Assembly: GCA_900763885.1 (NCBI GenBank)
Contig: CAAFLY010000155.1
Location: 1 to 48,291 of the forward strand
Reading direction: 5' to 3'
Length of the DNA: 48,291 bases
From: Clostridia bacterium
GTDB taxonomy: Bacteria; Bacillota; Clostridia; Oscillospirales; CAG-272
Part shown: in pieces, positions 7,218 to 40,880 of the stretch
Layout of the letters: every line of letters starts with the position of its first letter
How positions within the stretch are numbered: position 1 is the stretch's first letter
The notes under the pieces: generated by a model
Databases searched by the model: none
The model's input: the letters and a program-made list of their open reading frames with translations, nothing else
Told to the model about the DNA's origin: nothing
Translations under genes and position numbers: made by a program

Positions 7218-8717
7218 TCACCATTCCATCTCGCCCAGCTCCCGGTAGGCGGTCAGGATCTTGTCATTGTAGTACTTCTTGGTGGATTCCGCGTATCCGG
7301 CGAGGGTGGAGGACAGCTTGCCGTCGGAGCCCTTGAGCTTATAGTGGATGACCCACGTATAGTTGTTCGGGTCCGGATAGCTGTAGCCGATGTCGTATAC
7401 GCGCCCTGCCATGATGTAGTCGAGCATTTCGAGAGAATCCTCGTCGCGGGACAGCTTGAACGTCACCATGTTCTCAAGATATGCCGGGATCAGGTGCTGA
7501 TAGGAATCGGCGGACAGCGCTTCCAGGATCAGACCCGTGTTCTCGCGGTTTTCGGCGGCACTCACGATCGGTACCCCAAACGCGCCACAGCGGCAGTCGT
7601 CATAGGTATAGTATTTTTCCTGCTGTTCGTCGAATTTCGGATACGGTAGAAGTCCGTAGCCGCTCTCGTTCTGGCGGAATTTCTCCAGATCGTTGAACCA
7701 GATCGCCTGGATGAACACGCGGTTTTCGTCCCACTTGATATCGCATTCCTTGTCCCAACCGATCTCAAACGTATTGTTCGAGCCGTAGAGCATGTGATAG
7801 AGCCATTCCGTCATCGTGGAGAACTTCTCGCTCTGGTAGCCCAGCTCCACGCCGTCCTCTTTGAGGTGTATGCCCATTTCGCCGATCGCGTAGCACCAGG
7901 TCAGCGCGTGATAACCGAAGTTGGTCGCGTAGCCGTAGGTGTCGTTCTCGTCGTACCTGCCGTCGCCGTTTGTATCGGTCGTCACGCTTTCCACGATCTT
8001 TTGGAAGCTGTCCATCGTCCATGTCCCGTCGCGCACCATATCGTACAGTCCGTCGATCCCGCGGTCGTCCGCCATGGCCGTATTGTAGACGAGAAGGTTC
8101 GCGTACTGGTAGGAATTGAGGGAGTAGTCGGACAGAATCGCCGGGAGATAGCCGTACAGGGTGAAGGTGTCGTTGATCTCGGTGTGCCACCACGGCTTGT
8201 CGAAATCGATGTACGGGATCTTCAGCATATTGTAGAAGAGCTTGCCCTGCACCATCTGCGCCTGGAGCTGATACGTGTAGTAGATCGCGAGATCGTACAC
8301 ATCGTCCCCGGCGGCGACCAGATTGGTGAGCACCGTGCCCATTCTGCCCCACACATCGGAGCCCTCCGGCGGCACCACGTTGTAATTGAAGTTGAAACGA
8401 TCCTCCAGACGGGCCGTGCGGTTGTAGATCTCGTCGTTGATCAGCTCGCCGTTCAGCTCCTCCGCGGTAAAGGTCCATGTGCCGGACAGCGCGTCCTCGT
8501 GGCAGACGATGTCCATGTCCCAGCCGCCGAGATCCTTCTCCGGCAGATCATCGGAGAGCTCCGTCTCGGCAGGCGCCGTTTCGCTTTCCGCTGTCGCGTC
8601 GTTCTCCCCGCCGACGGTGTCCGCCGCGGGATTCTTGGTGTCCGCCGTGCCGCAGGATGCCATGAGCAGGAGTCCGCACAGCAGCAGGGAAAGCATTCTC
8701 TGATAGGCTTTCATCAT
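7218..8717 (-). CDS. ABC-transporter extracellular solute-binding lipoprotein (sugar type)
   Basis: Lipoprotein signal peptide with lipobox LLMASC. Large family-1 SBP-like sequence. No permease or ATPase genes are adjacent. Confidence 0.7.
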   Translation of the reverse strand: MMKAYQRMLSLLLCGLLLMASCGTADTKNPAADTVGGENDATAESETAPAETELSDDLPEKDLGGWDMDIVCHEDALSGTWTFTAEELNGELINDEIYNRTARLEDRFNFNYNVVPPEGSDVWGRMGTVLTNLVAAGDDVYDLAIYYTYQLQAQMVQGKLFYNMLKIPYIDFDKPWWHTEINDTFTLYGYLPAILSDYSLNSYQYANLLVYNTAMADDRGIDGLYDMVRDGTWTMDSFQKIVESVTTDTNGDGRYDENDTYGYATNFGYHALTWCYAIGEMGIHLKEDGVELGYQSEKFSTMTEWLYHMLYGSNNTFEIGWDKECDIKWDENRVFIQAIWFNDLEKFRQNESGYGLLPYPKFDEQQEKYYTYDDCRCGAFGVPIVSAAENRENTGLILEALSADSYQHLIPAYLENMVTFKLSRDEDSLEMLDYIMAGRVYDIGYSYPDPNNYTWVIHYKLKGSDGKLSSTLAGYAESTKKYYNDKILTAYRELGEMEW

Positions 8718-10103: not shown

Positions 10104-10160
10104 CGAAAAAAAGGATCCGTCCGGTCCCGTCTGTGGGGGTCGGATGGATCCTTCTTTTGT
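10104..10160. terminator. Bidirectional terminator (permease / hydrogenase operon)
   Basis: Long hairpin AAGGATCCGTCCGG ... TCGGATGGATCCTT (10111-10152), flanked by an A-run and a T-rich run. Confidence 0.75.
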
Positions 10161-10168
10161 TCTGGTTT

Positions 10169-10261
10169 TAAGGATGCTCTGAATAAATCGGGTTTTTGCG
10201 ATAAAAGGCTGAAATATAGGGGCTTTTATCGCAAAAATAACCTGAAATCAGAGTTTCCTTA
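10169..10261 (-). repeat. 93-nt nested-palindromic stop-codon-associated element, copy A
   Basis: Near-identical to 32593-32685 and 39181-39273. Sense orientation is on the minus strand. Its terminal TAA (10261-10259) is the hydrogenase stop codon. Confidence 0.9.
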
Positions 10262-11686
10262 GTCCTTCAGCATGGAAATCGCGTCGGTGATCGTCTTTTC
10301 ATACGCCTTTTTGCCGTATTTATCGACCTCCGCCTTGTTCTTTTCGCCATGCGTCAGACAGCCCGCGCCGCCGATACAGCCGCCGATACACGCCATGCCC
10401 TCGATGAAATTCGCGTCGAGGAGATTTTTGCTCTTTTTCAGCAGCGCGATCCGGCACTCCTCGATCCCGTCGCAGGCGCACGGCTTGAGCTCAAAATCGG
10501 TGATCCCGTGTTCCTTGAGTCCCTCGGCGACGGCATCGGAAAGACCACCGCAGCGTGCGAAAATCCGGCCGAAATAGGACGCGTTGTCCAGCACGCCCTC
10601 ATCGAGTGTGGTGATGTCCAGATCGCGGCTGTCAAAGAGCGCCTGCAGCTCCTCGAACGTCATGGCGACGTCCACCCACGGCTTGACGGAATCCTTCTGG
10701 ACCTCCATCTTTTTGGCGGTGCAGGGTCCGATGAAGATCGTCCTGCAGGGGGCCTCGTGTTCCTTGATGTATCTCGCGATCGCCCCCATCGGAGACAGAT
10801 TGTGCGACACGAGGGGCAGCAGCTGCGGGAACGCCTTCTCGACATAGGCGACAAACGCCGGGCAGCAGGAGCTGGTCAAAAAGCCCTTCTCGGCAAGCTC
10901 CTCCGATTCCGCGTAGGCGACCATATCCGCGCCGAGTGCCGCCTCAACGACGGTGTGGAACCCCAGCTCCCGCAGGCCGGTGATGACCTGTCCGAGCTTG
11001 GCGTAGGTGAACTGGCTGGAAATGGACGGCGCGACGATGGCGTAGACCTTGTAATTCCGGTTTTCGTCGCTGTTTTTCAAAATGTCGATCGCGTCCAGTA
11101 TGTAGGACTTGTCGGAGATCGCGCCGAACGGACACTGGTACACGCACGCGCCGCAGGAGATGCACTTGTCGTTGTCGATCGCCGCGGCCTTGTCCTCGTT
11201 CATCTTGATCGCCTTGATCTTGCACGCGTTTTCGCACGGACGCTTCCGGCTGATGATCGCGGTATACGGGCAGACCTTCGCGCACGCGCCGCATTCCTTG
11301 CATTTCGTTTTGTCGATGTGTGCCACGTGATTCTGGTCAAAGGTCAGCGCGCCGAACCGACAGGCGTCCTCGCAGCGATGCGCCAGACAGCCGCGGCAGG
11401 CGTTCGTCACCTCGTAGCCGCCCATCGGACATTCGTCGCAGGCGGTTTCGATGACCTCGATGACGTTCGGGTTGTTCCGGTCTCCGCCCATCGCGAGCTT
11501 GACGCGGTCGCCGAGAATCGCGCGTTCTTTATAGACACAGCAGCGCATGGTCGGTGTTTTTCCGGGGACGATCAGCTTCGGGATGTCCATGACGTTTTCC
11601 GCAAGCGTGCCGTTCCACGCGAACCGTGCGACCTCGCGCAAAACCTTGTATTTCAGGTGCTGAACCTTGGTATCAAATTTTCTCAT
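10259..11686 (-). CDS. [FeFe] hydrogenase, group-B-like monomeric type
   Basis: N-terminal Cys-rich / two 4Fe-4S ferredoxin motifs (CKECGACAKVCP, CISCGACVYQCP). H-cluster motifs TSSCCP, GPCTAKK and EGMACIGGCIGGAG. Confidence 0.85.
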   Translation of the reverse strand: MRKFDTKVQHLKYKVLREVARFAWNGTLAENVMDIPKLIVPGKTPTMRCCVYKERAILGDRVKLAMGGDRNNPNVIEVIETACDECPMGGYEVTNACRGCLAHRCEDACRFGALTFDQNHVAHIDKTKCKECGACAKVCPYTAIISRKRPCENACKIKAIKMNEDKAAAIDNDKCISCGACVYQCPFGAISDKSYILDAIDILKNSDENRNYKVYAIVAPSISSQFTYAKLGQVITGLRELGFHTVVEAALGADMVAYAESEELAEKGFLTSSCCPAFVAYVEKAFPQLLPLVSHNLSPMGAIARYIKEHEAPCRTIFIGPCTAKKMEVQKDSVKPWVDVAMTFEELQALFDSRDLDITTLDEGVLDNASYFGRIFARCGGLSDAVAEGLKEHGITDFELKPCACDGIEECRIALLKKSKNLLDANFIEGMACIGGCIGGAGCLTHGEKNKAEVDKYGKKAYEKTITDAISMLKD

Positions 11687-19547: not shown

Positions 19548-20642
19548 ATGAGAGCGATGGATCGAAAGATCGTTTTGGAAGACGGCGCGGTATATCCCGG
19601 CTACGGCTTTGGCGCCATGACCGACCGCGTATGTGAGATCGTCTTCAACACCGCGATGGTCGGCTATCAGGAGGTGGTGTCCGACCCGTCGTATACGGAT
19701 CAGATGGTCGTGATGACCTACCCCTTGATCGGCAACTACGGCATCACGGACGACGATTTTGAATGCAAAAACCCCTCGATCGGCGGCATGATCGTGTGCG
19801 ATTACAACGACGCGCCGTCGAACTTCCGCTACACAAAAACCCTGTCGGAGCTATTGGAGGAAAACGGCATCCCCGGCATCTCCGGCGTGGACACCCGCAA
19901 GCTGACCCGCTCCATCCGCGATCTCGGCTCCCGCCGCGTGATCATCACCTCGATCGACACGCCCGTGGATGAGGCGCAGCACATTCTCGCGAGCACCCCG
20001 ATCCCGCACGATCAGGTCTCCCGCGTCAGCTCCAAAAAGCGGTGGTATTCCCGCACGTCCAACCCGCGCTTCAACGTCGTCGCCGTGGACTGCGGCATGA
20101 AGCTCAACATCATCCGCTCCTTAAACCGCTTCGGCTGCAATGTGACCGTCGTGCCGTATGATACGCCCGCGGAGGAGATCGCGTTCATGAAGCCGGACGG
20201 CGTATTCTTCTCAAACGGCCCCGGCGACCCGGAGGATGTAAAACCCGTGATCGAGACGATCCGCGGACTGCGGGGGAAATATCCCCTCTTCGGCATCTGT
20301 CTCGGCCACCAGATGATCGCGCTGGCGTACGGCGGCTCCACGTACAAGCTGAAATTCGGCCATCGCGGCGGCAACCACCCCGTCATGCGCCTGACCGACG
20401 GCAAAATCGAGATCACCTCGCAGAACCACAGCTACGCCGTAGACGAGGCCTCTCTTGCCGGCAGCGGACTGGTCGTGACCCATCGGAATCTCCTCGACGG
20501 CACCGTGGAGGGCATGGAATGCGCGGGGGAGCGGGTATTCTCCGTACAGTATCATCCGGAAAGCGCGCCCGGTCCCGAGGACAGCGTATACTTATTCGAG
20601 AAGTTTGTGGAAAACATGAAGGAGGGTGCGAAAAATGCCTAA
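19548..20642 (+). CDS. carA: Carbamoyl-phosphate synthase small (glutaminase) subunit
   Basis: ATG at 19548 after AGGAG. Class-I amidotransferase motif [10 protein letters not shown] and HRGGNHPV. Confidence 0.92.
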
Positions 20643-23600
20643 GAGAACGGACATAAAAAAGGTACTGGTGATCGGCTCCGGCCCGATCGTGATCGGTCAG
20701 GCGGCGGAATTCGACTATGCCGGAACTCAGGCTTGTCTCGCGCTGAAGGAGGAGGGCTACGAGGTCATTCTCGCAAACTCCAACCCGGCGACGATCATGA
20801 CGGACACCTCCGTCGCGGACAAGGTATATATGGAGCCTCTGACGCTGGAATTTCTGGCGCGCATCTGCCGGTATGAGCGGCCAAACGCCATCGTTCCCGG
20901 CATCGGCGGTCAGACCGGTCTCAACCTCGCGATGCAGCTGTACAAAAAGGGCGTTCTGGACGAATGCGAGATCGAGCTGCTCGGCACGGACGCGAAAAGC
21001 ATCGAATGCGCGGAGGACAGAGAGCTGTTCAAGGAGCTGTGCGAACGGATCGGTGAGCCGGTTGTCCCCTCGAAGATCACCTACACCGCCGATGAAGCCG
21101 TGGAAGCGGCAGCGGAGATCGGCTACCCCGTGATCCTCCGTCCGGCATTCACTCTGGGCGGCACGGGCGGCGGCTTTGCCTACACCCCGGAGGAGCTGCG
21201 CGAGATGATGAAAAACGCGCTCGCCCTCTCGCCGGTCCATCAGGTGCTTGTCGAGAAGAGCATCAAGGGCTACAAGGAGATCGAATACGAGGTGATCCGC
21301 GACGCGAACGATACGGCGATCACGGTGTGCAACATGGAAAACCTCGATCCGGTCGGCATCCACACGGGCGACTCCATTGTCGTGGCGCCGAGCCAGACGC
21401 TGACCAACCGCGAATACCAGATGCTGCGCAACAGCGCGCTGAAAATCATCCGGGCGCTCGGCGTGAAGGGCGGCTGCAACGTACAGTTCGCGCTTGATCC
21501 GCATTCGTTCCGGTATTACGTGATCGAGGTCAATCCGCGTGTGTCCCGTTCGTCGGCGCTCGCGTCCAAGGCAAGCGGCTACCCGATCGCACGGGTTTCG
21601 GCAAAAATCGCCGTCGGCATGGATCTGCACGAGATCCAGCTCGCGAACACGCCCGCCTCCTTTGAGCCGACGCTCGACTATGTGGTAACGAAGATGCCGC
21701 GCTTCCCGTTCGACAAATTCCCGGCGGCACAGAATACGCTGTCCACGCAGATGAAGGCGACCGGCGAGGTCATGAGCGTCGGACGGACGTTTGAGGAAAG
21801 TCTCCTAAAGGCGATCCGGTCCCTGGAGGAGGGCAAAAACCACATCCACATGGAAAAGTTCGACTCCGCGCACATGAGCGTGGACGAGCTGCTTGCCTAC
21901 ATCCAAAACGGCACGGACGACCGGCTGTACGCGATCTCGCAGCTGATGTGGATGGGCGTGGACCCGTCTCTCATCTGCGACATTACGCAGATCGATATGT
22001 TCTTCCTCGACAAGATCCAGCACATTGTGGATTTTGAAAAGGAGATGGAGGAAAATCCCTTTGACGCGGCACATCTGCGCGAGGCAAAGCGACTTGGCTT
22101 CTCGGATTCCTACGCGGCGGAGCTGTGGCACTGCACGGAGGATGAGATCTACGCGATGCGCCAATCGGAGAAGATGTATCCCGTATACAAGATGATCGAC
22201 ACGTGCGCAAGCGAGTTCGACAGCTATGTGCCGTATTTCTACTCCACCTACGCGGACGAAAACGAGTCGGTGGTATCGGACAAGAAAAAGGTGATCGTGC
22301 TCGGCTCCGGTCCGATCCGCATCGGGCAGGGCGTGGAATTCGACTATTCCACGGTACACGCGGTGCGCACGATCCGGGAATGCGGCTACGAGGCGATCGT
22401 CATCAACAACAACCCCGAGACGGTGTCCACGGACTACACGACCGCCGACAAGCTCTATTTCGAGCCGTTGACCGCCGAGGACGTGATGAACATCGTGGCG
22501 CTGGAGCGGCCGGAGGGTGTGATCGTAACGCTCGGCGGACAGACCGCGATCAACCTTGCCGCACCGCTTGCCGCACGCGGAGTAAAAATCATCGGCACGG
22601 GCTGCGCCGCCATCGACAAAGCGGAGGACAGAGACGCCTTTGACGCCGTGATCAAGTCGCTGTCCATCCCGAATCCGAAGGGGGAGGCGGTGACGGATAT
22701 CGAAAAGGGCGTAGCGGCAGCGGAAAGGATCGGCTACCCGGTGCTGGTGCGTCCGAGCTTCGTGCTGGGCGGCCGCGCCATGGAGATCGTGGCAAACGAG
22801 TCGATGCTGCGGAAATATCTGCGCACGGCGGTGGAGGTAGACGAGGACAAGCCGGTACTGATCGACAAATACTTAGTCGGCCGCGAGGTCGAGGTGGACG
22901 CGATCTGCGACGGACGGGAGGTATTCCTGCCCGGGATCATGGAGCTTGTGGAGCGGACCGGCGTCCATTCCGGAGACAGCACGAGCGTTTATCCGCCCTT
23001 CTCCCTGTCGCAGAGGGTGCGGGATGTGATCGCGGACTACACGCGCCGGCTCGGGCTGGGCATCGGGATTGTCGGCCTGTTCAACATCCAGTTCATTGTG
23101 GACCGCGAGGACAACGTTTACGTGATCGAGGTCAATCCGCGGGCATCGCGCAGTGTGCCGTTTCTCTCGAAATCGACGGGGGTGAATCTTGTGCAGATCG
23201 CGACCCGTGTGATGCTGGGCGAATCTCTCGCCGATCAGGGGATCACGGAGCTTCTGCCGCCGGACAGAGAGCGGTGGTACGTCAAGGCGCCCGCGTTCTC
23301 CTTTGCGAAGCTGACTGGCATGGACGCGTATCTCTCCCCGGAGATGAAGTCCACCGGTGAGGCGATCGGCTACGATAAGCGGCTCAACCGCGCACTGTAC
23401 AAAGCGCTGCAGGCGTCCGGCGTAAAGATGAAAGACTACGGCACGGTGATCGTCACTCTGGCGGACGAGGATAAGGAGGAGGCGCTGCCCCTCGTGCGCC
23501 GCTTCTACCGTCTCGGCTTCAACATCGAGGCGACCATCGGCACGGCTACGTTCCTGAAGGGGCATGGGATCCGCACCCGTGTCCGCGGCAAGCTCAGCGA

Positions 23601-23820
23601 GGGCAGCGAGGAGATCCTCGATTCCATCCGCGCAGGCTACGTGAGCTACATCATCAACACACGCGCGATCCTCTCCGGCGTCCATTTCGATGACGGGGTC
23701 GCGATCCGCCGCTGTGCCGTGCAGAACGGTGTGACCATCTTCACCTCTCTCGACACCGTCCGCATCGTTCTCGACGTGCTGGAGGAGACGATCCCCACGA
23801 TCTCGACGATCAACGAATAA
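20635..23820 (+). CDS. carB: Carbamoyl-phosphate synthase large subunit
   Basis: Starts [32 protein letters not shown], has duplicated ATP-grasp halves and overlaps the carA stop by 8 nt. Confidence 0.95.
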
Positions 23821-23911
23821 GAAAGCCTCTGATTTCATGTTATTTTTGCGATAAAAGCCCTTATATTTCAGCCTTTTATCGCAAAAATTCGATTTATTCA
23901 GAGGTTCCTAA
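23818..23911 (+). repeat. Stop-codon-associated palindromic element, copy B (94 nt)
   Basis: Begins with the carB stop codon TAA. The central ~47 nt are identical to the other copies and the ends are more diverged. Confidence 0.9.
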
Positions 23912-30965: not shown

Positions 30966-31991
30966 ATGCTTCTTTGCGCCTATGTCTTCGGGCACTGCGA
31001 CGCGATCACCGACGAGGACGCGAAAATGCTCGATCTCATCAACATCGCCTTCGGACTGATCCGGGATGGCAGGCTCTTTGTGCCGGAGAGCGCCGCTTCT
31101 CCCGTGTGGGAACGTCTGCGGGCGGCAAATCCGTCTCTGCGCGTCCTGCTCTCCATCGGCGGCTGGGGGGCGGGCGGCTTCTCCACCATGGCGAAATCGC
31201 AGACCGCGCGGCAGGTCTTCATCGACTCCTGCCTGTCCGCCGTCGAAGCGTACGGTCTGGACGGACTGGATCTCGACTGGGAATACCCGACCATCGACTC
31301 CGCCGGAATCGACGCCGCCCCCGCCGACCGGGAGAATTTCACCGCCCTGCTCACCGAACTGCGCGCCGCTCTCGACACGCGGTATCCGGATACGCACAAA
31401 ATGCTCACCATCGCGGCAGGTGGCGGGGATTATTACATACACGCCGTGGAGCTTCCGAAGCTCGTGCCGGTGCTCGACTACATCTCCCTCATGACCTACG
31501 ATCTCGCCGGACTGCACGTGCCCGCCATGCACCACACCGCCCTCTACAGCACCGCGCTGCAGCCGAATTCCGTGGACGCGAATGTGAAGCGGTTCATGGC
31601 GGCCGGTGCTCCCGCGGAGAAGCTTGTCATCGGCGCGGCGTTTTATTCCCGGCGGTGGCTCCACATCCCGGACGGCGGCACCCATGGATTGGGGCAATCC
31701 GAGACGATCCGCGATCCAAGCAGCGGCGGCTTCGGTCCCGGGTTCGGTACCCTGTCCGCCATGCGCGGTCGTGACGGATTTACCGCCTATCGCGACGAAA
31801 CCGCCCACGCGCCGTATCTCTACAACGCGGAAACGGGCGAGTGGCTCAGCTATGACGACCCGGAAAGCGTCGCCGAAAAGGTCCGGTACGCCAAAGAGCA
31901 CGGTCTGTACGGCGTGATGTACTGGGAGCATGGCTGTGATCCGACGCGCGCACTGCTCGACGCCCTGTACACGGCGAAGAACGAGGGGTAA
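30966..31991 (+). CDS. Glycoside hydrolase family 18 (chitinase / endo-beta-N-acetylglucosaminidase-like), no signal peptide
   Basis: Catalytic motif DGLDLDWEYP. ATG preceded by GGAGGA. Confidence 0.8.
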   Translation: MLLCAYVFGHCDAITDEDAKMLDLINIAFGLIRDGRLFVPESAASPVWERLRAANPSLRVLLSIGGWGAGGFSTMAKSQTARQVFIDSCLSAVEAYGLDGLDLDWEYPTIDSAGIDAAPADRENFTALLTELRAALDTRYPDTHKMLTIAAGGGDYYIHAVELPKLVPVLDYISLMTYDLAGLHVPAMHHTALYSTALQPNSVDANVKRFMAAGAPAEKLVIGAAFYSRRWLHIPDGGTHGLGQSETIRDPSSGGFGPGFGTLSAMRGRDGFTAYRDETAHAPYLYNAETGEWLSYDDPESVAEKVRYAKEHGLYGVMYWEHGCDPTRALLDALYTAKNEG

Positions 31992-31992
31992 T

Positions 31993-32595
31993 ATGGCGTC
32001 GCTTGTCATGCATCTTGCCGCAGCCGTGCGGATCCTCCCGGAGCTGGGTATACCTGCCTCGGAGCGGAATCGTTTTCTGTGGGGACAGCTGCTGCCCGAT
32101 GCGCGCGGAGACGGTACGGCGGCAAAACGGGCCACGCATTTCCGCGCGATTTCTCCAGACGGCACACAGCTTTGCGATTTTCCCCGATTTCTGTGCGATT
32201 TTCCGCCGGCAACAGACAGCCTGTATCTCGGCTACTACTGCCATCTCTGCGAGGACTGGACGTTCCGCCATTTTCTCTACGACATCTGTGGGATCGTACC
32301 TACGCCGGCACTTGCCCCCACGCTGCACCGGGATTATTCTCTCCTGAACGCGCCGCTGATCCGCCGATACGCTCTGTCGCTCGATTTCGGAGACGTGCCA
32401 GAGCTCCCGGGACCGCTCATGGCGTATTTCCCCTACGACATATCCGCGTTACGCGCGATGCTGCACGCGAATTTCACCGATCCCGCCCCGGAAAACGAGA
32501 CGCCGACGCTCTTCACGCTCGATATGGCGCAGGCATACATCGAGGCGGCGGTCGCGGAGACCTTGGACAACGTGCGGAAGCTGCCAATCGAATAA
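31993..32595 (+). CDS. Hypothetical protein (possibly a zinc-dependent phospholipase-C-like fold)
   Basis: 200 aa, starting 1 nt after the GH18 stop. The His-containing segments (MHLAAA, THF, YYCHLCEDW) only loosely suggest a metal hydrolase. Confidence 0.5.
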   Translation: MASLVMHLAAAVRILPELGIPASERNRFLWGQLLPDARGDGTAAKRATHFRAISPDGTQLCDFPRFLCDFPPATDSLYLGYYCHLCEDWTFRHFLYDICGIVPTPALAPTLHRDYSLLNAPLIRRYALSLDFGDVPELPGPLMAYFPYDISALRAMLHANFTDPAPENETPTLFTLDMAQAYIEAAVAETLDNVRKLPIE

Positions 32596-32685
32596 GGAAA
32601 CTCTGATTTAAGGTTATTTTTGCGATAAAAGCCCTTATATTTCAGCCTTTTATCGCAAAAATCCGAATTATTCAGAGTATCCTAA
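32593..32685 (+). repeat. Stop-codon-associated palindromic element, copy C (93 nt)
   Basis: Begins with the TAA stop of the preceding CDS. It differs from copy D at 3 of 93 positions. Confidence 0.9.
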
Positions 32686-32690
32686 GCACT

Positions 32691-32735
32691 CCGCGGGGAG
32701 CCTGTCACACCGATACGATCCCCGCGGTGTTTTTA
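32691..32735 (+). terminator. Intrinsic terminator after the GH18 operon
   Basis: CCGCGGGGA ... TCCCCGCGG followed by TGTTTTTAT. It lies downstream of repeat copy C. Confidence 0.75.
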
Positions 32736-37597: not shown

Positions 37598-38119
37598 ATG
37601 GACAAATACAGGAAAGCGGTGCGAAAAAGGCTCTGGCGTCTTCTCCCGGCGATACTTCTGATGGCACTCATCTTCCATTTCTCCGCCGAGGACGCGACCG
37701 CTTCCGCCCAGTCCAGCGGCAGCACGATGCTCTGGCTCCTGCGCCTGTTCCATGTATCGGACACAGACGCCATTGTGGGAAACAGTGAACTGTACTCCCT
37801 CCTCGATTTCTGTATCCGCAAGGGCGCCCATTTCTCCCTCTACACGGCGCTGGGTGTCGCCCTCTCGCTTGCCCTGACCGCTTTTCCGGCGATCCAGCAG
37901 TGGAAGCGCACGGCCTACGCGGTGCTGTGCGGCATCTTCTACGCGGCGACGGATGAGTTGCACCAGTATTTTGTCCCCGGCAGGGCGTGTCAGGTGCGCG
38001 ATGTGTGCATCGACACGGCAGGGGTGCTGCTCGGCTGCGCGGTATTCTGGTGCGTCGGCTGGCTTCTCCGGCATCACCGCGAGAAAAAAGAAAAAACCGC
38101 GGAACGCGGCGTAAAATAA
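37598..38119 (+). CDS. VanZ-family membrane protein
   Basis: Four hydrophobic segments and the family-typical RKGAHF ... ATDELHQYFVPGR motif. Confidence 0.8.
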   Translation: MDKYRKAVRKRLWRLLPAILLMALIFHFSAEDATASAQSSGSTMLWLLRLFHVSDTDAIVGNSELYSLLDFCIRKGAHFSLYTALGVALSLALTAFPAIQQWKRTAYAVLCGIFYAATDELHQYFVPGRACQVRDVCIDTAGVLLGCAVFWCVGWLLRHHREKKEKTAERGVK

Positions 38120-38220
38120 GGAGACGCTGATTTCGGTTGATTCCCGTGCTAAAACCCTACAGTCAGGTTTTTTTCGCAAAAGCTCGACGTACTTGCGCAA
38201 ACGGATTCAGCGCGTCCTGA
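38117..38220 (+). repeat. Diverged member of the stop-codon-associated palindromic element family (copy E)
   Basis: Starts at the vanZ stop as TAAGGAGACGCTGATTTCGG and ends CGGATTCAGCGCGTCCTGA. The terminal architecture matches copies A-D but the core differs. Confidence 0.6.
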
Positions 38221-38249
38221 AAACTTATATGTAAAGGCAGGTATTGATT

Positions 38250-39180: not shown

Positions 39181-39273
39181 TTAGGATACTCTGAATAAAT
39201 CGGATTTTTGCGGTAAAAGGCTGACATATAAGGGCTTTTATCGCAAAAATAACCTTAAATCAGAGTTTCCTTA
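39181..39273 (-). repeat. Stop-codon-associated palindromic element, copy D (93 nt)
   Basis: Sense orientation is on the minus strand. The queH reading frame runs 5 codons plus the stop into it. Confidence 0.9.
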
Positions 39274-39911
39274 GCCGCCGCGCGTCGTTTTTCGGCATCC
39301 CGTGCCGAGTAGACACAGCCGCAGAAATCCTGCCGGTACAGTCCGTATTCCCGCGACAGAACGATCGAGCGCTGATACCCGCCGCGCTTTTTGAAATCCG
39401 AGGTCAGGTACACGCCGCCCATCTCCGCCGCTGTCTGTGCGCCGATCTCATTGAGCCACACGGCGTTTTTGTAGGGACTGATCGACAGCGTGGTCGTGAA
39501 ATAGTCATATCCACCCGCCTGCGCCTGTTTTGCCGTCTCCCGCAGCCGCATTTCGTAGCAGAGACGGCATCGCGCCCCTCCCTCCGGCAGCTCCTCCATA
39601 CCGCGCGCCATAGCGTAAAACCGCTCCGGCTCATAGGCACCAGCGATCACGGTGATCGGGCAGCCGTAGGACACGCGCTCGACAAGGTGCGTCAATTCCG
39701 CAAGACGCAGCGCGTATTCCGCCTCCGGCGAGATGTTCGGATTGTAGAAAAGCACATCGATTTTCCGAAAATGCGGCGAGAGGTACGCAAGCGTATACGA
39801 GGAGCAGGGCGCACAGCACGCATGGAGCAGAAGCGTCGGCTTCTCTGCGCGCGTGTCGATCTCCGCAAGCGTTTTTTCAAGGATCTTCCCGTAATCCACT
39901 CTGTTTGTCAT
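39255..39911 (-). CDS. queH: Epoxyqueuosine reductase QueH (DUF208)
   Basis: Start trimmed to MTNRVDYGK. LLLHACCAPCSSY motif and conserved C-terminal Cys residues. Confidence 0.85.
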   Translation of the reverse strand: MTNRVDYGKILEKTLAEIDTRAEKPTLLLHACCAPCSSYTLAYLSPHFRKIDVLFYNPNISPEAEYALRLAELTHLVERVSYGCPITVIAGAYEPERFYAMARGMEELPEGGARCRLCYEMRLRETAKQAQAGGYDYFTTTLSISPYKNAVWLNEIGAQTAAEMGGVYLTSDFKKRGGYQRSIVLSREYGLYRQDFCGCVYSARDAEKRRAAAKETLI

Positions 39912-39915
39912 GCGT

Positions 39916-40602
39916 TCACTCCCATTTCTGCCCGGCAAGCCGTCTCTCGGCCTGTCTGAGTCCGTCCAGTCTTTCCCGATATTCCGGCATCCATGCCCCA
40001 ACCTGCGCCCAGAACGACGCGCTGTGGTTCATATGCAGCAGATGCGCAAGCTCATGTGTGACAACGTACGCGCCGATTGCCGGATCCATCGCGGACAGCA
40101 TCGCATTCAGGCGGATCGATCCGGCGGATGTGCAGGAGCCCCACCGCTTCCGCGGATGCGTCACCGATACCGCCTTCCATCTGTCCGCCACACTGTACCT
40201 TTCCGCGAGCGCCTGACACAGTGGCAGAAACACCCGTTTTGTCTCCGTCTCGTACCATTTGCGCATGGCGGCGGCAAGAGAGGGGGTATCCGCCGGAAGG
40301 GACAGCGTATCGCCTGCCAGAATCCCCTCAGGGATCCGGCGCGGGATCGTGTGTCGCGTGGGATCCGGCGTCAGGCGCACCTCACATCCCCAGACCGGCA
40401 CCGTGTCTCCGAACGACAGCGGCCGCGGCACCGGAGAGAGCGCGAGATGGCTCTCGATCCACGCGGTGTGCGCGAGAACAAACCGGTCAATCTCCCGCAT
40501 GGACATCCGTTCCGGCGCGCGCACGAGCACCTCTCCCTCGCGGATCTGGATGGATATGGTTCTCCGGTCGGAGCGGATCAGGGTATATTTCTTCTCTGGC
40601 AT
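39916..40602 (-). CDS. YgjP-like (DUF45 / M48-related) metallopeptidase
   Basis: HELAHLLHMNH (HEXXH) motif. Start trimmed to MPEKKYTLIR. Confidence 0.8.
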   Translation of the reverse strand: MPEKKYTLIRSDRRTISIQIREGEVLVRAPERMSMREIDRFVLAHTAWIESHLALSPVPRPLSFGDTVPVWGCEVRLTPDPTRHTIPRRIPEGILAGDTLSLPADTPSLAAAMRKWYETETKRVFLPLCQALAERYSVADRWKAVSVTHPRKRWGSCTSAGSIRLNAMLSAMDPAIGAYVVTHELAHLLHMNHSASFWAQVGAWMPEYRERLDGLRQAERRLAGQKWE

Positions 40603-40638: not shown

Positions 40639-40667
40639 AGTATACACCTTTTTCGGACGCATTGCAA
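40639..40667 (-). promoter_or_regulatory. Promoter of the ygjP-like / queH operon
   Basis: The minus strand reads TTGCAA, a 17-nt spacer ending in TG, then TATACT. Confidence 0.65.
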
Positions 40668-40716
40668 GAGGCTATATGAGGCGAGATATGGCGCCGTTCA
40701 TTTTTTACCAAATCTA

Positions 40717-40745
40717 TTGACAATCCATCTGCGGCATGGTACACT
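40717..40745 (+). promoter_or_regulatory. Promoter of the 515-aa hypothetical gene
   Basis: TTGACA, 17-nt spacer ending in TGG, TACACT. Confidence 0.65.
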
Positions 40746-40880
40746 AAGGGAACGTTGATATAAGGATTGATTCCCTGTGGATTCAGCCGTATCCATCCCC
40801 GGAAGAGTGTGCATCGGAGCTTTTTCGTGCGGCTCTTCCCCCCCCCGACACTGTGCTTATTCTATGTGAGGTATCCCATC

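Follow-up and report, generated by a model that had tools for sequence, protein, structure and literature searches.

The 48,291-nt stretch of clostridial DNA analysed here (the window) has a GC content of ~60% and carries, within 48 kb, five to six copies of a short repeat that is markedly more AT-rich than its surroundings. The sequence-only reading of this DNA had described four near-identical copies and a diverged one, and all five were found again when both strands of the window were searched with an nhmmer profile built from the four near-identical copies. These four were recovered at exactly the positions and on the strands first given, with scores of 92-100 bits, and the diverged copy with 27 bits. 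Copies have a length of 93-94 nt and, as first described, C differs from D at 3 positions and from A at about 6 (97% and 94% identity over 94 nt). The orientation of the element can be called despite its near-palindromic nature, since the opposite strand of the copies scores only ~30 bits. Inverted-repeat arms of 31-39 nt lie inside each window copy, and the 18-nt arm of the core is matched eight times in the window, compared with 0.05 matches expected by chance.

Genes were called with a self-trained codon-usage caller and spot-checked with Pfam, which identified the neighbours of the copies as first named: an Fe-hydrogenase, CarB, a 221-aa protein without Pfam hit, QueH and VanZ. Copy A (10169-10261, minus strand) is joined to the TAA stop of the Fe-hydrogenase gene (10259-11686, minus) and lies between this stop and the terminator of the gene (10111-10153, minus), a GC-rich hairpin followed by T7 that was found by hairpin search 16 nt downstream of the copy. 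Copy B (23818-23911, plus) is joined to the TAA stop of carB (20626-23820, plus), and copy C (32593-32685, plus) to that of the gene for the 221-aa hypothetical protein (31930-32595, plus), upstream of a terminator composed of a hairpin (CCGCGGGGA...TCCCCGCGG) and a T-run (32691-32735, plus). The diverged copy E (38117-38220, plus), which belongs to a related second family, is joined to the TAA stop of a vanZ-like gene (37598-38119, plus), whereas copy D (39181-39273, minus) is located within the 3' end of queH (39255-40001, minus). The stop codon is therefore the first TAA of the element in four of the five cases (A, B, C and E), in agreement with the sequence-only reading. The common termini proposed there, TAAGGAAACTCTGATTT at the start and ATTCAGAGTATCCTAA at the end, apply literally to copies C and D; copy A ends with ...GAGCATCCTTA and copy B starts with TAAGAAAGCC. 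A tentative mini relative that consists of little but the ends of the element (TAA-GGGAACGTTGA...TTCAGCCGTATCC; ~40745-40794, plus) is found in a 5' region, after a promoter-like TTGACA-17-TACACT sequence.

Ends, related families and empty sites

A scan for the core hairpin in one genome per species yielded 26 loci in five uncultured gut Clostridia/Eubacteriales MAGs, the window species not being among them, and a metagenome scan for the element added 15 further contigs. Together, the window and the five gut MAGs contain 35 copies; adding the metagenome contigs and merging orthologous sites results in 48 distinct insertion sites. The non-window loci were fetched by an exact core pattern, and the core looks nearly invariant in the alignment partly as a result of this selection. 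Alignment of 43 unique copies reveals terminal inverted repeats (TIRs) with the sequence GGAA[A/G]CCTCTGA opposite TCAGAGGTTCC. Just outside the TIRs, copies are flanked by 3-bp direct repeats of the forms TAA..TAA, TTA..TTA, ATA..ATA and GTA..GTA, with TAA or TTA dominating. The two flanking 3-mers are identical in 15 of the 26 copies that have xTA or TAA at both ends (permutation p = 0.006), and seven copies combine TAA on the left with TTA on the right.

Besides the main family (family 1), the loci contain a second, related family with the TIR GGAAACGCTGA, of which copy E (GGAGACGCTGA...TCAGCGCGTCC) is a member, as well as TIR-only mini derivatives of ~35-50 nt that lack the core hairpin. 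The latter occur in the window (~40745-40794) and in loci L044 (15628), L002 (4465), L024 (171-207), L025 (4141) and L037 (~2929-2965). The mini copy in L044 is orthologous to the one in the window, and at least one of these derivatives (L002) is flanked by TAA..TAA repeats. In several loci, a family-1 copy runs straight into a family-2 left end (GGAAACGCTGATTT...), with one TAA common to both (L001 5543-5690; L016; L004 4158-4290; L006; L013; L025 5586-5750), an arrangement that looks like repeated insertion beside the end of an existing element. The sequence after copy B (GAAAACGCCGATTT) was considered as a family-2 remnant and rejected; it aligns with the orthologous flank of an empty site in a relative (L065) and is probably just flank.

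Empty orthologous sites were identified in relatives for all five window copies. Copy A is absent from L038-L040, relatives with 94% protein identity, in which the stop codon directly abuts the same terminator hairpin, and a 96% relative (L037) has a TIR-only remnant exactly at the copy A position. The empty site for copy B in the 88% relative L065 reads AACGAA-TAAG-AAGAGAACGC. Copies C, D and E are all absent from the 93% relatives L044-L046, where the site of copy C reads ATCGAA-TAAG-GAAG, followed directly by the terminator. The empty sites (...AAA-TAAG-GAT, ...GAA-TAAG-AAG and ...GAA-TAAG-GAA) thus carry a single trinucleotide where filled sites show flanking repeats. Within the window species (contigs with 98.6-100% nucleotide identity), copy A was present in 10/10 conspecific contigs and copies C and E each in 8/8, so that these three are fixed, whereas D is polymorphic. 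Variation within species was also seen for a family-2 copy, which appears as TTA-element-TTA-GTATAC in two strains, compared with a single TTA-GTATAC in others; the same site reads TAA in L044. The polymorphism of copy D and of this family-2 copy among conspecific strains indicates that the family has recently been active. A family-1 copy in L047 is flanked by GTA..GTA, and L044 is without the element there, its flanks being too diverged to define the target. Apart from the repeats, a two-gene indel (a 544-aa HTH_3/GFO_IDH protein and a 501-aa protein) is polymorphic among conspecific strains; it lies between a YgjP-like gene and a gene for a 515-aa protein and is absent from the window (40663-40766), as opposed to L067/L072 (9270-12880) and L044 (12197-15560).

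Two of the window copies have rewritten the ends of their host genes. Copy D is not a stop-codon insertion but sits at an out-of-frame TAAG. Its first TAA is not in the reading frame of queH, which extends 16 nt into the element and closes at the second TAA, such that the element supplies the last five codons (KETLI) and the stop in place of a native tail of 16 codons. This copy was found in only two of nine conspecific contigs, the window and L071, the latter from an NCBI assembly, and is absent from the other seven. The QueH proteins of strains without copy D are 16 codons longer and end in ...AAAGDQKQDAVTRELVSD*. The insertion is located in the non-conserved tail of the protein, past residue 234 (of 248), where the Pfam QueH domain ends. 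The sampled empty alleles (L067-L070 and L072-L074, ~7880-7960) read TGG at the position for which the filled allele shows TAA on either side of the element. Three further SNPs are clustered within ~45 nt of the insertion point. In the case of copy E, the TGA directly after the element (window 38221-38223) aligns with the native vanZ TGA stop of element-free relatives (L044 9964-9966), which suggests that the TAA of the element now serves as the vanZ stop and that the TGA is the old stop or a duplicate of it at the other end.

Target site, stop codons and orientation

Read in element orientation, the right-hand repeat is followed (+1) by G in 18 of 26 copies; of the 13 copies not located at stops, 11 have this G (p = 4e-5). 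The left-hand repeat, by comparison, is preceded (-1) by C in only 5/26. The frequent G on the right and the scarcity of C on the left point to a polar target with the sequence T-W-A-G. Base composition beyond +1 is weakly purine-rich. Going by these sequences, the duplication could equally be described as 3 bp plus a preferred G or as 4 bp (TWAG), and both descriptions would predict the same empty sites. The polarity of the target is unexpected for a symmetric TIR transpososome and is the one unusual feature of the element.

Across the 48 unique sites, 13 copies are exactly fused in sense orientation to the stop codon of the upstream gene, and three more are read into by it. Three copies are exactly fused in antisense orientation and one is read into from that side. 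More than 20 copies are situated elsewhere, in divergent promoters, between cistrons, in a conjugative element or more than 100 nt from any gene end. Genes fused in sense include alaS, gatB, recG, a sulfatase gene and others; those fused in antisense include a gene for a LuxR-type regulator (Pfam). The sequence-only reading had described the repeat as always fused to a stop codon and always in sense orientation, a description that does not extend to the full set of 48 sites (16 sense, 4 antisense, more than 20 elsewhere). The ratio of sense to antisense is 13:3 for exact fusions, 16:4 when read-in copies are included and 20:6 when a gene end within 20 nt is accepted. The 16:4 ratio departs from 1:1 (p = 0.012); when the copies of the window are left out, 12:4 remains, which does not differ significantly from a sense fraction of 0.5 (p = 0.08). 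We considered the idea that only the sense orientation quickly closes all three reading frames and dismissed it, because copy C, whichever way it is read, provides stops in all three frames within 18 nt.

With a polar target, fusion in sense requires a TAA stop followed by G (TAA-G), and fusion in antisense a TAA stop preceded by C (C-TAA), as is present in all three exactly fused antisense copies. Among genes not adjoining an element, 33% of the TAA stops are followed by G and 6% preceded by C. With TAA-G stops being ~5 times commoner than C-TAA stops, most stop-associated copies are expected to point in the direction of the gene. In the sampled DNA, TAA-G stops are occupied in 13/44 cases and C-TAA stops in 3/8 (p = 0.69), and the sense fraction expected from the stop contexts is 0.84-0.85, compared with 0.77-0.81 observed. 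Equal occupancy per site together with the greater abundance of TAA-G indicates that target polarity multiplied by stop context is enough to account for the sense excess. In intergenic DNA, per-site use of TTAG exceeds that of TAAG ~4-fold (p = 0.03); with the same preference at stops, the expected sense fraction would drop to 0.58, against an observed 13/16 (p = 0.075), which leaves room for a modest extra sense preference beyond target availability.

We consider it likely, with a probability of about 0.78, that the repeat is a non-autonomous, target-specific MITE whose sense excess is set by the frequency of suitable stop sites. It would represent a ~90-nt DNA transposon with two 11-12-nt TIRs, subterminal arms and a 15-bp palindromic core, which a trans-acting transposase may integrate at T-W-A under duplication of three bases. 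In genomes with ~60% GC, the TWAG sites that tolerate an insertion would largely be TAA stops followed by G. The duplication would rebuild the stop, leaving the gene unharmed and the element between stop and terminator, in the 3' UTR. This proposal builds on direct observations (the TIRs, the flanking direct repeats, the empty sites, the strain-level polymorphism, the polar flank and the site census). It also agrees with the earlier statement that a randomly inserting MITE would not give such a pattern, which was correct, as the pattern fits a target-specific MITE.

Target-specific insertion, as put forward in the sequence-only reading, does place copies on stops: TWAG sites at stop codons are occupied in 16/52 cases and other intergenic TWAG sites in 12/282, a ~10-fold difference (p = 1e-7) in which absolute occupancy is inflated by the choice of loci for containing the element but the comparison between classes stands. 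We infer that purifying selection rather than active targeting lies behind this excess. The gap between stop and terminator would be neutral ground, unlike promoters and intercistronic sites, and copies would accordingly be tolerated at stops. MITEs and ISs, pneumococcal repeats among them, are generally enriched at convergent gene ends, which is usually put down to tolerance (PMC3049150). Alternatively, the stop and sense excess could reflect active targeting, either of sequences like the element's own TAA-GGA end or through coupling to transcription or translation termination. Such homing would be in line with the situation in the window, where 4/8 TWAG sites in stop-sense context are occupied as opposed to 0-1 of ~20 intergenic ones, with the empty sites of copies A and C (TAAGGAT and TAAGGAAG), which resemble the left end of the element (TAAGGAA), and with the family-1 copies found repeatedly directly upstream of a family-2 left end. 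However, the similarity beyond +1 amounts to a weak purine richness, and the empty sites of copy B (TAAGAAGAG) and of the family-2 copy (TTAGTATAC) read differently. Active targeting therefore strikes us as improbable.

RNA structure and possible 3' UTR function

Each copy folds into a long hairpin, with z-scores of -2.8 to -6.7. The core hairpin is not a canonical terminator, as already recognised in the sequence-only reading: its AT-rich stem is followed by A5, without a U-run. Separate canonical terminators are located downstream of copies A and C and, at the corresponding empty sites, directly after the stop. These two terminators were overlooked or assigned to the wrong strand by a simple scanner (that of C has a loop of more than 8 nt); they were recognised by reading the sequence itself and by their conservation at empty sites. 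The position of A and C between the stop codon and an intrinsic terminator makes it likely that they are co-transcribed with the upstream gene.

It is conceivable that the repeats, although mobile, retain their location and sense orientation through selection for a function of the RNA in the 3' UTR, such as protection of mRNA 3' ends or processing by RNase III or E, and selection of this kind had been suggested from the first five copies. The expected transcription of A and C, the stability of the hairpins, the ten times higher occupancy of stop-proximal TWAG sites and the residual sense excess that remains if TTAG is intrinsically preferred are all compatible with this idea. There are also precedents, in that orientation-dependent RNA effects of ERIC and RNase III cleavage of Correia elements are documented in work cited in PMC3049150. 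However, folding favours the antisense over the sense RNA by 6-12 kcal/mol, and covariation analysis yielded no support for an RNA structure among the aligned copies (covariation term 0.04). Almost all stem pairs are either unchanged or disrupted on a single side, and double changes are few and come from divergent copies on conjugative elements. The insertions are specific to lineages or strains, being absent from orthologous sites in sister lineages and, for copy D, also from most conspecific strains, and copy A has decayed to a remnant in one lineage. Moreover, many copies lie in promoters, in 5' regions or antisense to genes, and occupancy per site is equal for both orientations. Searches against Rfam 15 at the gathering threshold matched only a tRNA in the window, and a permissive search over copy C returned only generic miRNA-precursor hairpin models, far below threshold. 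We therefore see little reason to invoke a selected RNA role, for which the odds appear low. A target-specific MITE offers a simple account, in which a designed-looking pattern would result from target sequence multiplied by site availability, with no need for an RNA function.

Mobilisation and relation to known systems

Neither the window nor ~400 kb of related loci contain an autonomous IS with matching TIRs (ends of the type GGAARCCTCTGA...TCAGAGGYTTCC); a search of the fetched loci for TIR matches returned only TIR-only mini copies and family-2 ends. Comparison of the element with plasmids and phages by BLAST and a pattern scan of viral contigs gave no match, and when viral contigs were scanned for the TIRs alone, a single, apparently fortuitous hit emerged. 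The window encodes just one transposase, which belongs to a complete ISAs1-type IS (385-1547, minus; transposase ORF 399-1499; Pfam DDE_Tnp_1_assoc and DDE_Tnp_1). Its TIRs measure 23 nt (CACRGCAACAGCATTTACTTTTT) and its direct repeat 10 bp (CGTGGTTTTT), and the IS adjoins a tRNA gene (255-326, minus) in a stretch of low GC content (48.7%, compared with ~60%). It was rejected as a partner, given that its 23-nt TIRs are unrelated and its duplication measures 10 bp. We conjecture from the 3-bp AT-rich duplication that the mobilising enzyme may be an IS5/PIF-Harbinger-like DDE transposase; both IS5 and PIF/Harbinger elements produce 3-bp duplications at AT-rich targets (PMC4122938).

Several metagenome contigs carry the element between conjugative-element genes, with four or five copies per contig in L059 (13.1 kb) and L061 (9.8 kb) and further cases in L049, L050, L055, L058, L060 and L062. 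The surrounding genes encode a VirB4/TraG-like ATPase, PrgI, NlpC/P60, a CD1107-like protein, a topoisomerase and Bro-N/ANT proteins. None of these copies has TWA direct repeats; instead, the 3-mers on either side form an inverted pair (xGA...TCx), which lengthens the TIRs by 2-3 bp. One copy on a conjugative contig lies inside an ORF of 355 aa without Pfam hit. Their presence on conjugation contigs suggests a plausible route between species. A bolder version, in which TIR integration is truly polar, with T-W-A-G dictating orientation, and is combined with active stop targeting, such that a DDE-type element homes to gene ends and spreads on conjugative elements, is an unlikely scenario in our view.

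The polar target, with orientation fixed relative to the element, and the folding of the whole element into a hairpin are reminiscent of REP/REPIN-RAYT and IS200/IS605 systems, which likewise feature dispersed palindromic repeats near gene ends and a polar relation to a short flanking motif. The sequence-only reading had raised single-strand transposition of this kind, in which a Y1 enzyme (RAYT/TnpA) would move the element to a position next to a fixed tetranucleotide. However, those systems are without TIRs or target duplications and need a Y1 transposase, whereas this element has true TIRs, its left and right trinucleotides co-vary (TAA/TAA, TTA/TTA, ATA/ATA, GTA/GTA) and match a trinucleotide present in a single copy at empty sites. 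It is also AT-rich and 93 nt long, as opposed to the GC-rich REPs of 20-40 nt. Pfam analysis of 32 of the 41 ORFs called in the window returned no Y1 transposase, the sole transposase being the ISAs1-type DDE enzyme with its unrelated ends. A Y1-driven mechanism thus appears extremely improbable. Similarity to integron attC sites, which are also imperfect palindromes placed directly after the stop of the upstream ORF in fixed orientation, was likewise considered and discarded: the ends read GGAA.../...TTCC, there are no R''/R' motifs (RYYYAAC/GTTRRRY) and there is no integrase or cassette array, the neighbours being housekeeping genes with empty sites.

Judged by the criteria for bacterial MITEs, which we used to assess membership, the element has all sequence-level hallmarks except an identified partner (PMC3184786). 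It has TIRs and flanking direct repeats, the latter with the caveats that the empty allele of copy D reads TGG and that copies on conjugative elements are without them. It is shorter than 200 bp and free of a transposase gene, it is dispersed in many copies (48 unique sites in at least six genomes or metagenome bins), and filled and empty sites are found. The 3-bp AT-rich TWA duplication typical of IS5/PIF-Harbinger (Tourist-like) elements was found as well. The repeat is thus a new MITE family, a known sort of mobile DNA, in uncultured gut Clostridia. For the uncultured Clostridia of the human gut, a poorly known group, this means an additional MITE family with recent activity, whose polymorphism among strains could make it useful as a strain marker. 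It also rewrites gene ends, as exemplified by the shortening of QueH by 16 codons.

Like the BOX, RUP, Correia/nemis, ERIC, bcr1 and Nezha MITEs, the element is small, AT-rich relative to its host and non-coding, with TIRs and direct repeats (PMC3049150, PMC3184786). It further resembles them in forming a long hairpin, in the occurrence of filled and empty sites between relatives and in its enrichment downstream of genes. In pneumococci, 36 genes have their stop codon encoded by a BOX repeat (PMC3049150), and the element studied here supplies that of queH in a similar manner. At the same time, it shares no sequence similarity with any of these MITEs, and its hosts are uncultured gut Clostridia with ~60% GC. 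Its duplication of 3 bp at TWA differs from the 5-bp duplication of bcr1 as well as from the TA duplicated by Correia and RUP elements. Unlike in known MITEs of 3' regions, moreover, the link with stop codons follows from the target itself, and this target is polar.

The 3-bp TAA/TTA duplications and TIRs beginning with GG are shared with Tourist/PIF-Harbinger and IS5 elements, in which the element's membership is putative, with no partner transposase found in the searched loci. Maize PIF prefers CWC-TTA-GWG, so that a G after the duplicated TTA is common to both. However, whereas the extended target of PIF is palindromic, only the right side is constrained here (G in 18/26 copies, against C in 5/26 on the left), and this polar target is a feature that a transposition specialist might follow.
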